The notes under the pieces are model-generated. The model had not been told where the DNA came from. It saw only the letters and a program-made list of their open reading frames with translations, and did no database searches. A DNA stretch of 64,000 nt from an uncultured Chloroflexia bacterium (GTDB lineage: Bacteria; Chloroflexota; Limnocylindria; Limnocylindrales; CSP1-4), in contig CAVVJT010000010.1 in assembly GCA_963748625.1 (NCBI GenBank), positions 672,001 to 736,000 on the forward strand, in the 5' to 3' direction. The position numbers were made by a program, and so were the translations under genes. This document shows, in pieces, positions 36,371 through 36,547 of the stretch. The stretch's first letter is position 1; the number at the start of each line of letters is the position of its first letter.

Positions 36371-36446
36371 TGGCGCGCCCGGCGGGACTCGAACCCACGA
36401 CCTTTAGGTCCGCAACCTAACGCTCTATCCGCTGAGCTACGGGCGC
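36371..36446 (-). tRNA. tRNA-Arg(GCG)
   Basis: GCGCCCGTAGCTCAGCGGATAGAGCG-TTAGG-TTGCGGA-CCTAA..GTTCGAGTCCCGCCGGGCGCGCCA; A20 arginine identity element present. Confidence 0.95.
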
Positions 36447-36455
36447 CTGTATGAC

Positions 36456-36547
36456 TGGCGGAGAGGGAGGGATTCGAACCCTCGGAGCAGGTTACCCCAC
36501 TCGGCGGTTTAGCAAACCGCTGCACTAGACCTCTATGCGACCTCTCC
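36456..36547 (-). tRNA. tRNA-Ser(GCT)
   Basis: GCGGT-TTGCTAA-ACCGC anticodon arm, long variable arm, GCCA end; TGCTATGAT extended -10 upstream. Confidence 0.96.

Follow-up and report, generated by a model that had tools for sequence, protein, structure and literature searches.

TadA is essential in model bacteria and, to our knowledge, is treated as nearly universal. A tRNA-Arg with anticodon GCG in place of ACG has been described in several bacterial lineages. In Mollicutes, the replacement went together with the loss of tadA (Yokobori et al. 2013, PMC3711424), and the stepwise model outlined in the same paper puts tRNA-Arg(UCG) first and the change of A34 to G34 after it. According to PMC8007984, GCG takes the place of ACG in all sequenced Thermotogae and Spirochaetes, and PMC8629427 reports the same for bacteria of the Candidate Phyla Radiation (CPR), citing Rafels-Ybern et al. 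2019 (Molecular Biology and Evolution) for deeply branching bacteria without inosine. Here, we analysed a 64-kb stretch of DNA (hereafter, the window; C10:672001-736000 of the source assembly, G000) from a soil/freshwater bacterium of the class Limnocylindria, phylum Chloroflexota. The window carries a gene for tRNA-Arg(GCG) and, 13 kb away, a gene for a TadA homolog that lacks the catalytic glutamate. Since GCG decoding is known from the lineages treated in the sources above, the tRNA-Arg(GCG) found here adds one more ordinary case to an alternative decoding scheme that is already known, and it is the conserved Glu-less TadA, more than the tRNA itself, that is of interest for follow-up. We consider it probable that CGN codons are decoded here without inosine, and that the tadA ortholog was inactivated once and has been kept for a non-catalytic role.

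In comparison with the Mollicutes as presented in PMC3711424, which are reduced AT-rich parasites, the genome described here belongs to a free-living organism, has a size of 4.6 Mb and a GC content of 71%, keeps tRNA-Arg(CCG), and has tadA conserved as a Glu-less protein rather than deleted. Chloroflexota resemble the Thermotogae, Spirochaetes and CPR bacteria, as portrayed in the papers cited, in having at the level of the phylum a CGN set of G34, U34 and C34 tRNAs that would work without inosine (104 of 116 matched genomes). Unlike in those lineages, so far as these papers describe them, both anticodon states coexist within Chloroflexota, and a putative dead-TadA intermediate is preserved. 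Our literature search, which covered main texts, found nothing on tRNA-Arg or TadA in Chloroflexota or Limnocylindria; Rafels-Ybern et al. 2019 may already cover Chloroflexota. Nor did the search return a paper on a bacterial TadA that is inactive yet conserved.

The tRNA genes were called with ARAGORN (seven calls within the window) and scored with the Rfam tRNA covariance model RF00005, gathering score 29 bits. The tRNA-Arg(GCG) gene (36371..36446, minus strand) is 76 nt long with an encoded 3' CCA and scored 70.0 bits, and the tRNA-Ser(GCT) gene directly upstream of it (36456..36547, minus strand) scored 55.3 bits; the spacer between the two is 9 nt. Read from the sequence, the anticodon occupies 36411..36413 on the minus strand, with G34 at 36413 (C on the plus strand), C35 at 36412 and G36 at 36411, in the loop U32 U33 G34 C35 G36 G37 A38 (UUGCGGA). 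A preliminary description of the window had given the loop as TT-GCG-GA, 9 nt downstream of tRNA-Ser(GCT), and both the ARAGORN call and the Rfam score bear it out. The cloverleaf is regular, and the D-loop, AGCGGAUA, holds A20. Work in E. coli established A20 and C35 as identity elements for arginyl-tRNA synthetase. Both elements are present, and the tRNA is therefore predicted to be an arginine acceptor. The anticodon was GCG in 29 of 29 loci taken from relatives of two families, and 28 of these loci hold tRNA-Ser(GCT) as well.

The G000 assembly has 4.63 Mb in 10 contigs with about 71% GC and is estimated to be 98.3% complete with 7.7% contamination. Whole-genome ARAGORN found arginine tRNAs with the anticodons GCG, TCG, CCG, CCT and TCT. 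No tRNA-Arg(ACG) was called in any of the 10 contigs, and the search of G000 with an R34 pattern gave a single match, GCG. The preliminary description had predicted this absence along with the presence elsewhere of a tRNA-Arg(TCG), which we located at C10:1171608-1171683; tRNA-Arg(CCG) lies at C8:28851-28926. The only A34 call was a 91-nt "Asp(atc)" at 61199-61289 of the window (minus strand). It is one of three over-long calls without a T-loop, the other two being an "Arg tcg" of 79 nt (C10:67828-67906) and an "Arg cct" of 89 nt (C7:881143-881231), and all three are probably false positives in GC-rich coding sequence. With no credible A34 tRNA in the assembly, there is therefore nothing left to edit.

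By the wobble rules, tRNA-Arg(GCG) would read CGC and CGU, tRNA-Arg(UCG) would read CGA and probably CGG, and tRNA-Arg(CCG) would read CGG. Arginine codons were counted in 1843 long open reading frames (ORFs) pre-selected for a GC content at third codon positions (GC3) above 0.85, a choice that biases the shares toward codons ending in C or G. The shares were 49.1% for CGC, 32.5% for CGG, 7.5% for CGT, 5.2% for CGA, 5.1% for AGG and 0.6% for AGA. Thus, in the codon usage that the preliminary description had proposed to examine, the G34 tRNA makes Watson-Crick pairs with the commonest arginine codon. The CGA codons are in use, so a UCG tRNA is needed. The tRNA set of G34, U34 and C34, with neither an ACG tRNA nor a TadA above the cut-off given below, is found in G000 and would decode CGN codons free of inosine, as far as the sequence indicates.

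The state of the anticodon in relatives was surveyed with a strict sequence pattern over the D-arm and the anticodon loop in 141 genomes of the class and 141 genomes of the phylum. In what follows, f1 is the family of the window, f2 is a family of streamlined 1.0-1.4-Mb genomes from the same order, f3 is the sister family, and f4 is a second family with the Glu-less protein. All matched genomes had GCG in f1 (37 matched out of 42 scored), in f2 (5 out of 5) and in f4 (43 out of 46), which makes 85 of 85 in the three families together; the single scored genome of f5 gave no match. For f3, the pattern matched in 37 of the 46 genomes scored, with ACG only in 35, GCG only in one (G090), and both in one (G137). 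The latter is 76% complete, one of its GCG genes is an f1/f4-type sequence with an encoded CCA, and G137 is probably a mixed bin. A strict pattern for tRNA-Arg(TCG) matched in 22/46 genomes of f3, often beside ACG, and in 15/42 of f1, 4/5 of f2 and 16/46 of f4, while ARAGORN confirmed TCG in 6/6 additional genomes from the genus of the window and in eight f3 loci. The presence of TCG in both the ACG families and the GCG families fits the order of events published for Mollicutes, as that paper outlines it. We also observed that in the arginine tRNA genes of f3 (L212-L221), the 3' CCA is not encoded and the common acceptor stem is GACCCCG; in those of f1 and f2 (L008-L037), CCA is encoded and the common acceptor stem is GCGCCCG.

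In the phylum sample, 116 of the 141 genomes were matched, 104 with GCG only, 10 with ACG only, and two (G212 and G314) with both. When ARAGORN was run on the 30 phylum loci returned, it called 28 as GCG and the other two as ACG. Arg(GCG) is the majority state of Chloroflexota and is not particular to G000. The preliminary description had taken Arg(GCG) to be uncommon in bacteria, a statement that does not hold for this phylum (104 genomes with GCG only versus 10 with ACG only, out of 141) or for the other lineages described in the sources cited above. Its further argument, that the position next to tRNA-Ser(GCT) normally holds Arg(ACG), is weak: within the stretches fetched, the ACG gene of f3 stood beside Arg(TCG) in 7 of 10 loci and beside Ser(GCT) in none.

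The Glu-less TadA homolog is encoded at 23135..23581 on the minus strand according to the public gene call, with 148 aa from an MNY start; a longer ORF begins at 23599. Where TadA has the triplet HAE, the protein reads DPTAHAV (matched string CAC GCG GTC), with the GTC codon for valine at 23420..23422 (minus strand) in the place of the catalytic glutamate, and in alignment this triplet falls on the HAE of the structures 7cph and 8e2q. We therefore call it the HAV protein. According to PMC3239186, the TadA family signature includes HxE and EPCxMC together with an E and an F that are conserved in the first C-terminal helix. In deaminases of the cytidine deaminase (CDA) fold, the glutamate is the proton shuttle, and TadA cannot bind the anticodon stem-loop without its long C-terminal helix, as stated in PMC8216470. 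The zinc ligands are kept in the HAV protein, as the histidine and EPCPMC. Its best matches in a sequence search of the PDB were TadA proteins (7cph, 8e2q, 1z3a and 2b3j; E from about 3e-23 to about 4e-18), aligned end to end.

A protein was taken as canonical TadA when it reached the curated cut-off of 150 bits for the NCBIfam model NF008113. Canonical TadA of Chloroflexota scored 157-175 bits; the HAV protein scored 94.2 bits (93 in the genome search). An AlphaFold2 model of the HAV protein (pLDDT 86.1, pTM 0.85) superposed on TadA structures with a best TM score of 0.92 (7cph and 2b3j) and a root-mean-square deviation of 1.8-1.9 Å among the top Foldseek matches, and the TadA fold is thus predicted to be intact. 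The C-terminus, on the other hand, differs from that of active TadA. The HAV proteins end in ...VVSG(I/V)R..EA(E/R)(E/R)L with a short tail and have no FFxxRR (19 of 19 in f1, 30 of 30 in f4), whereas all f3 proteins that reach the C-terminus end in the canonical ...LL..FF..R(R) helix, and FFxxRR occurs in other classes too. Of the two conserved residues of the C-terminal helix, the E is kept (EAEEL) and the F is absent. The HAV proteins are also more acidic, with a median isoelectric point (pI) of 5.0-5.3 and a net charge of -6, compared to a pI of 6.2 and a charge of -2 for the active TadA of f3. In short, the HAV protein resembles bacterial TadA (NF008113; 7cph, 1z3a, 2b3j) in full-length homology, predicted fold, zinc ligands and its tRNA-Ser(CGA) neighbour, and departs from it in the valine, the missing FFxxRR, the score below the cut-off and the acidity. 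From these features we infer that it is catalytically dead and that it does not bind the anticodon loop in the way of TadA.

The names under which Glu-less homologs are stored in public protein records (P0002-P0120) vary. At JGI, they are called "tRNA(adenine34) deaminase" or "tRNA(Arg) A34 adenosine deaminase TadA", and these names are probably misannotations, because the catalytic glutamate is missing; one Glu-less homolog is named "nucleoside deaminase" at NCBI.

The type of the catalytic triplet follows the families. All 19 loci of f1 had HAV, and all 30 loci of f3 had HAE. By aligned count, the 30 loci of f4 had 28 HAV and 2 HAL, and the 80 loci from named Limnocylindria metagenome-assembled genomes (MAGs) had 70 HAV, 5 HPV, 4 HAI and one disrupted gene (L111). 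In f2, the HAV protein used as a query matched none of 16 genomes, and a PF00383 search of five genomes gave a single match, present in four of them, which is a Cdd-type cytidine deaminase. Among the best 150 representatives of wider homologs at 50% identity, there were 103 HAE, 36 HAV, 5 fragments without the site and 6 odd or fragmentary sequences; the HAV representatives in this set were at least 46% identical to the query, except for one at 40% (P0233).

The comparison of the anticodon with the type of TadA was extended to the phylum sample. NF008113 exceeded its cut-off in 10 of the 141 genomes (G230, G301, G239, G250, G309, G285, G277, G205, G325 and G217), and these are exactly the ten ACG-only genomes, while all 104 GCG-only genomes are without a canonical TadA. 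A second tier of scores, 93-125 bits, was occupied solely by the 12 Limnocylindria genomes of f1 and f4, all of them GCG; the remaining scores in the phylum, 88 bits or less, belong to paralogs. A codon-level pattern, H-A-x...EPCxMC, agreed with the NF008113 result. In both the class and the phylum samples, GCG thus goes with a Glu-less or absent TadA and ACG with an HAE TadA; the preliminary description had proposed to look for a phylogenetic co-occurrence of GCG with HAV-type TadA. Because the genomes are related to one another, the counts characterise clades and should not be read as statistics. We infer that most of the sampled Chloroflexota do without inosine, as judged from their gene content.

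The position of the HAV gene identifies it further. In the window, tRNA-Ser(CGA), the conserved neighbour of tadA, lies at 21775..21862 (minus strand), and tRNA-Ser(GGA), the second tRNA of the pair at the tadA locus, lies at 21627..21714 (minus strand); both were assigned from ARAGORN calls and synteny. Within the flanking sequence retrieved, Ser(CGA) accompanies the HAV gene in 17 of 19 loci of f1, in 30 of 30 of f4 and in 77 of 80 from named Limnocylindria, and it accompanies canonical TadA in 7 of 10 loci from other classes. By this shared neighbour, the gene is recognised as the positional ortholog of tadA. A maximum-likelihood tree built from 46 proteins put the HAV proteins of f1 and f4 in one monophyletic group (100/99) on a long stem of 0.76 changes per site, and the sequences indicate that the inactivation is a single event that preceded the split of f1 and f4.

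The HAV gene does not look like a relic. Its median ratio of nonsynonymous to synonymous substitution rates (dN/dS, Nei-Gojobori) was 0.195 in f1 (171 pairs, maximum 0.31) and 0.205 in f4 (435 pairs), compared to 0.345 for the active TadA of f3 (378 pairs). Values near 0.2 mean that purifying selection constrains the HAV protein no less than the active enzyme. The Glu-less TadA that the preliminary description had reported 13 kb from the tRNA is real, with the valine codon at 23422-23420, though the idea of a decaying relic fails at a dN/dS of about 0.2. The gene neighbourhood gave no functional clue. In f1, the HAV gene is divergent from a phosphofructokinase gene (5 of 5 loci scanned), with an MFS transporter gene downstream in G000; in f4, its neighbours encode small proteins without a Pfam match, and the neighbourhood scan of f1, G000 and f4 found no conserved operon partner.

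The explanation that we favour can be put as a series of steps. The ancestor would have had tRNA-Arg(ACG) with an active TadA, and tRNA-Arg(UCG) would already have been present. The wobble base 34 would then have changed to G, or a G34 gene would have displaced the A34 gene. After that, TadA would have become catalytically dead and would have been retained in a non-catalytic role, as a bacterial counterpart of the pseudo-deaminase ADAT3. As for the protein itself, we give about even chances to the proposition that it is a neofunctionalised pseudo-deaminase, in which catalysis and binding of the anticodon loop were lost in one burst, represented by the long stem, and which was kept for a new non-catalytic job. 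That job could be the binding of another RNA or of a protein.

A different history would involve no switch in this lineage. GCG would be ancestral in Chloroflexota, and the ACG tRNA and TadA of f3, as well as the ancestor of the HAV gene, would have arrived by horizontal transfer. The dominance of GCG in the phylum sample, 104 of the 116 matched genomes, speaks for such a history, and so does the anticodon arm of the G000 tRNA-Arg(GCG), GTTAGGTTGCGGA, which is identical in families of other classes. Moreover, the ACG gene of f3 sits at another locus, beside TCG, and the tree does not settle the deep relations of TadA. However, the HAV gene is found at the tadA/tRNA-Ser(CGA) locus, where other classes have their canonical TadA. 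In addition, the ancestor of the HAV gene was an active TadA under this history too, which implies an A34 substrate in the past, so that a change from A34 to G34 is needed somewhere on the lineage in any case. We thus regard the history without a switch as unlikely. Of the interpretation in the preliminary description, that an A34-to-G34 switch removed the need for inosine, one part stands (there is no ACG tRNA, the UCG and CCG tRNAs cover CGA and CGG, and the glutamate is gone), while the other part is weakened by the phylum-wide occurrence of GCG and by the poor argument from the slot.

Several observations weigh against inosine-free decoding with a once-inactivated, retained tadA, or at least loosen it. 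That inosine is absent and that the protein is inactive are both deductions from sequence. The direction of change in the class rests mainly on the existence of a TadA-derived gene, since GCG dominates the phylum. Isoacceptors within one genome appear, by their sequences, to have been homogenised; they share acceptor stems, and tRNA sequences therefore cannot show GCG to be a point mutation of ACG. In the tree, the HAV clade grouped with the TadA of f3 and f26, apart from that of f9, f19 and f28, at a low support of 73/86. The HAV gene is absent from f2, and it is cut off in one genome from the genus of the window, G042 (97% complete; L293, G042:C73:5000-7500), so it is dispensable in some lineages. 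In G042, an HAV/HPV gene stops after about 85 residues, with the break about 130 nt before tRNA-Ser(CGA) and the zinc-binding half missing; loss of the gene seems to be in progress there.

Exceptions to the co-occurrence belong with these points. G212 and G314 have both ACG and GCG matches and no canonical TadA. In f3, the genome G090 (86% complete; L222, G090:C21:3600-4700) has a tRNA-Arg(GCG) whose acceptor stem is of the f3 type and which lies 9 nt from tRNA-Arg(TCG), and the homolog search gave no match to TadA in this 86% complete genome; it may represent a second, independent A34-to-G34 switch within the class. The f4 genome G089 has an HAV gene and, beside a second tRNA-Ser(CGA) on a 7.6-kb contig (L292, G089:C60:1-4000), a canonical HAE TadA, so that it may contain a mis-binned contig or else be a genome with both forms. 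Finally, all genomes other than G000 are MAGs, and the anticodon pattern had no match in 18 of the 141 class genomes and 25 of the 141 phylum genomes.

Had the HAV protein kept an enzymatic activity, this would be that of a deaminase or other hydrolase on another substrate, with some other residue replacing the glutamate. No variation was seen in the zinc ligands, H and PCxMC, across 80 of 80 named loci (PCPMC in all 80) and 30 of 30 loci of f4, the gene is under strongly purifying selection, and the review PMC10211241 mentions some pseudoenzymes with "migrated" catalytic residues. However, the position of the glutamate is always hydrophobic (V, I or L), and the alignment shows no newly conserved acidic residue that the two HAV families have in common; the position of the strand-2 asparagine is N or C in f1 and D in f4. 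ADAT3 was inactivated by the same change from E to V, as described in PMC8216470. A surviving enzymatic activity therefore appears quite improbable.

The comparison with ADAT3/Tad3 goes beyond the valine. PMC3239186 describes Tad3 as lacking the E of HxE, and PMC8216470 describes ADAT3 as a TadA-derived pseudo-deaminase that, like the HAV protein, has a valine for the glutamate with the zinc site kept, as well as a C-terminal helix without its substrate-binding part, and that has lost the determinants for recognition of the anticodon loop. According to the same source, ADAT3 also has an N-terminal tRNA-binding domain and works only with active ADAT2. The HAV protein, unlike this, consists of the deaminase domain only (148 aa), and G000 has no canonical TadA. 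A PF00383 search found four CDA-fold genes in G000. Besides the HAV gene, these are a gene for an HAE protein of 183 aa (C2:209467-209772), a cytosine-deaminase-like frame with HGE (60 and 53 bits on NF008113 for these two), and a 334-aa open frame, L004, at 34.8 bits. None of the CDA-fold matches in G000 reaches the TadA cut-off, and no active partner for the HAV protein was found among them. The objection that the genome might also have Arg(ACG) with an active TadA, raised in the preliminary description, falls with the lack of both in G000.

Still, the protein could pair, as the inactive subunit, with an active CDA-fold paralog in a heterodimer of the ADAT2/ADAT3 kind that is directed at a new RNA target. 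The ADAT3-like change from E to V together with the lost substrate-binding end of the C-terminal helix would suit such a role, G000 does have the 183-aa HAE paralog, and ADAT3 came ahead of ADAT2 in the PDB sequence search (E of 6e-12 versus 4e-8). The paralog, however, is sporadic, with a second match in about 8 of 25 genomes of the genus and in some of f4, compared to a nearly universal HAV gene there. Also, the HAE paralog of G000 groups with guanine-deaminase-like proteins in the tree and shows no gene linkage to the HAV gene. We consider a heterodimer very improbable.

That G34 is an artefact of sequencing, assembly or binning, the real tRNA being Arg(ACG), has a practically negligible chance: the assembly is in 10 contigs with the 7.7% estimated contamination and small-share public contigs did not settle the base, but the gene sits in a 1.4-Mb contig, no ACG was found in the assembly, and the sequencing error considered in the preliminary description is contradicted because GCG recurs in 29/29 relatives' loci and in 85/85 matched genomes of f1, f2 and f4. 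The public DNA runs that matched the region numbered 14, each of small share, with at most 0.12 of the sampled words. Contigs from four public runs over 21500-37000, whose source runs were likewise of small share (at most 0.12 of sampled words), had no difference at 36413 among the differences listed. None of the public runs listed was an RNA run containing the locus.

Some of the genomes used are flagged as unpublished, and the counts were repeated after their removal. Without G102, G145, G139 and G126, ACG only was found in 31 of the 33 matched f3 genomes, and without G122, GCG was found in 42 of 42 matched f4 genomes. Removal of G102 and G122, both of which matched the TCG pattern, changed the TCG counts to 21/45 in f3 and 15/45 in f4. 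The f3 TadA loci became 28 HAE of 28 without G145 and G102 (L158 and L167), the f4 loci became 26 HAV and 2 HAL of 28 without G185 and G190 (L184 and L195), and the number of GCG-only phylum genomes went from 104 to 103 without G236. As to the other uses of these loci, L158 is a row of alignment A1, the input of the structure model; L158 and L184 are rows of the tree; and L158, L167, L184 and L195 are in the dN/dS sets. The conclusions are independent of the flagged genomes.

Limnocylindria hold all the stages within one class: a TadA that is active, one that is apparently dead but conserved, one that is truncated, and one that is absent. If the HAV protein is indeed a neofunctionalised pseudo-deaminase, the class would offer an independent bacterial replay of the transition from TadA to ADAT3. 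The class is also a clean natural system for the study of how decoding strategies are exchanged without breaking translation, and of alternative uses of the TadA scaffold. For annotation, we caution that I34 or TadA-dependent mRNA editing should not be inferred from homology alone.

A second modification of the wobble base may have been given up in the same genome. The tRNA-Ile(TAT) gene of G000 lies outside the window at C10:1271914-1271989 (minus strand), and there are just two CAT tRNAs. A search with PF01171, the TilS PP-loop domain, had no match in G000, and the control search was positive in 14 of 14 reference genomes. ATA codons are very rare, 162 compared to 36939 ATC in the same 1843 long ORFs. 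AUA may thus be read by tRNA-Ile(UAU), with lysidine abandoned along with inosine.

The window has a few other features near or apart from the arginine tRNA. A tRNA-Ala(TGC)/tRNA-Ile(GAT) pair at 16094-16267 (minus strand) has the arrangement usual for the spacer of an rRNA operon. A 22-nt tandem repeat with the unit CGCCGCAGCCGTTCCTGCCCGG, situated just upstream of tRNA-Ser(GCT), extends over 36603-36696 in 4.3 copies with 97% matches, and a second short repeat array is located at 36714-36751.

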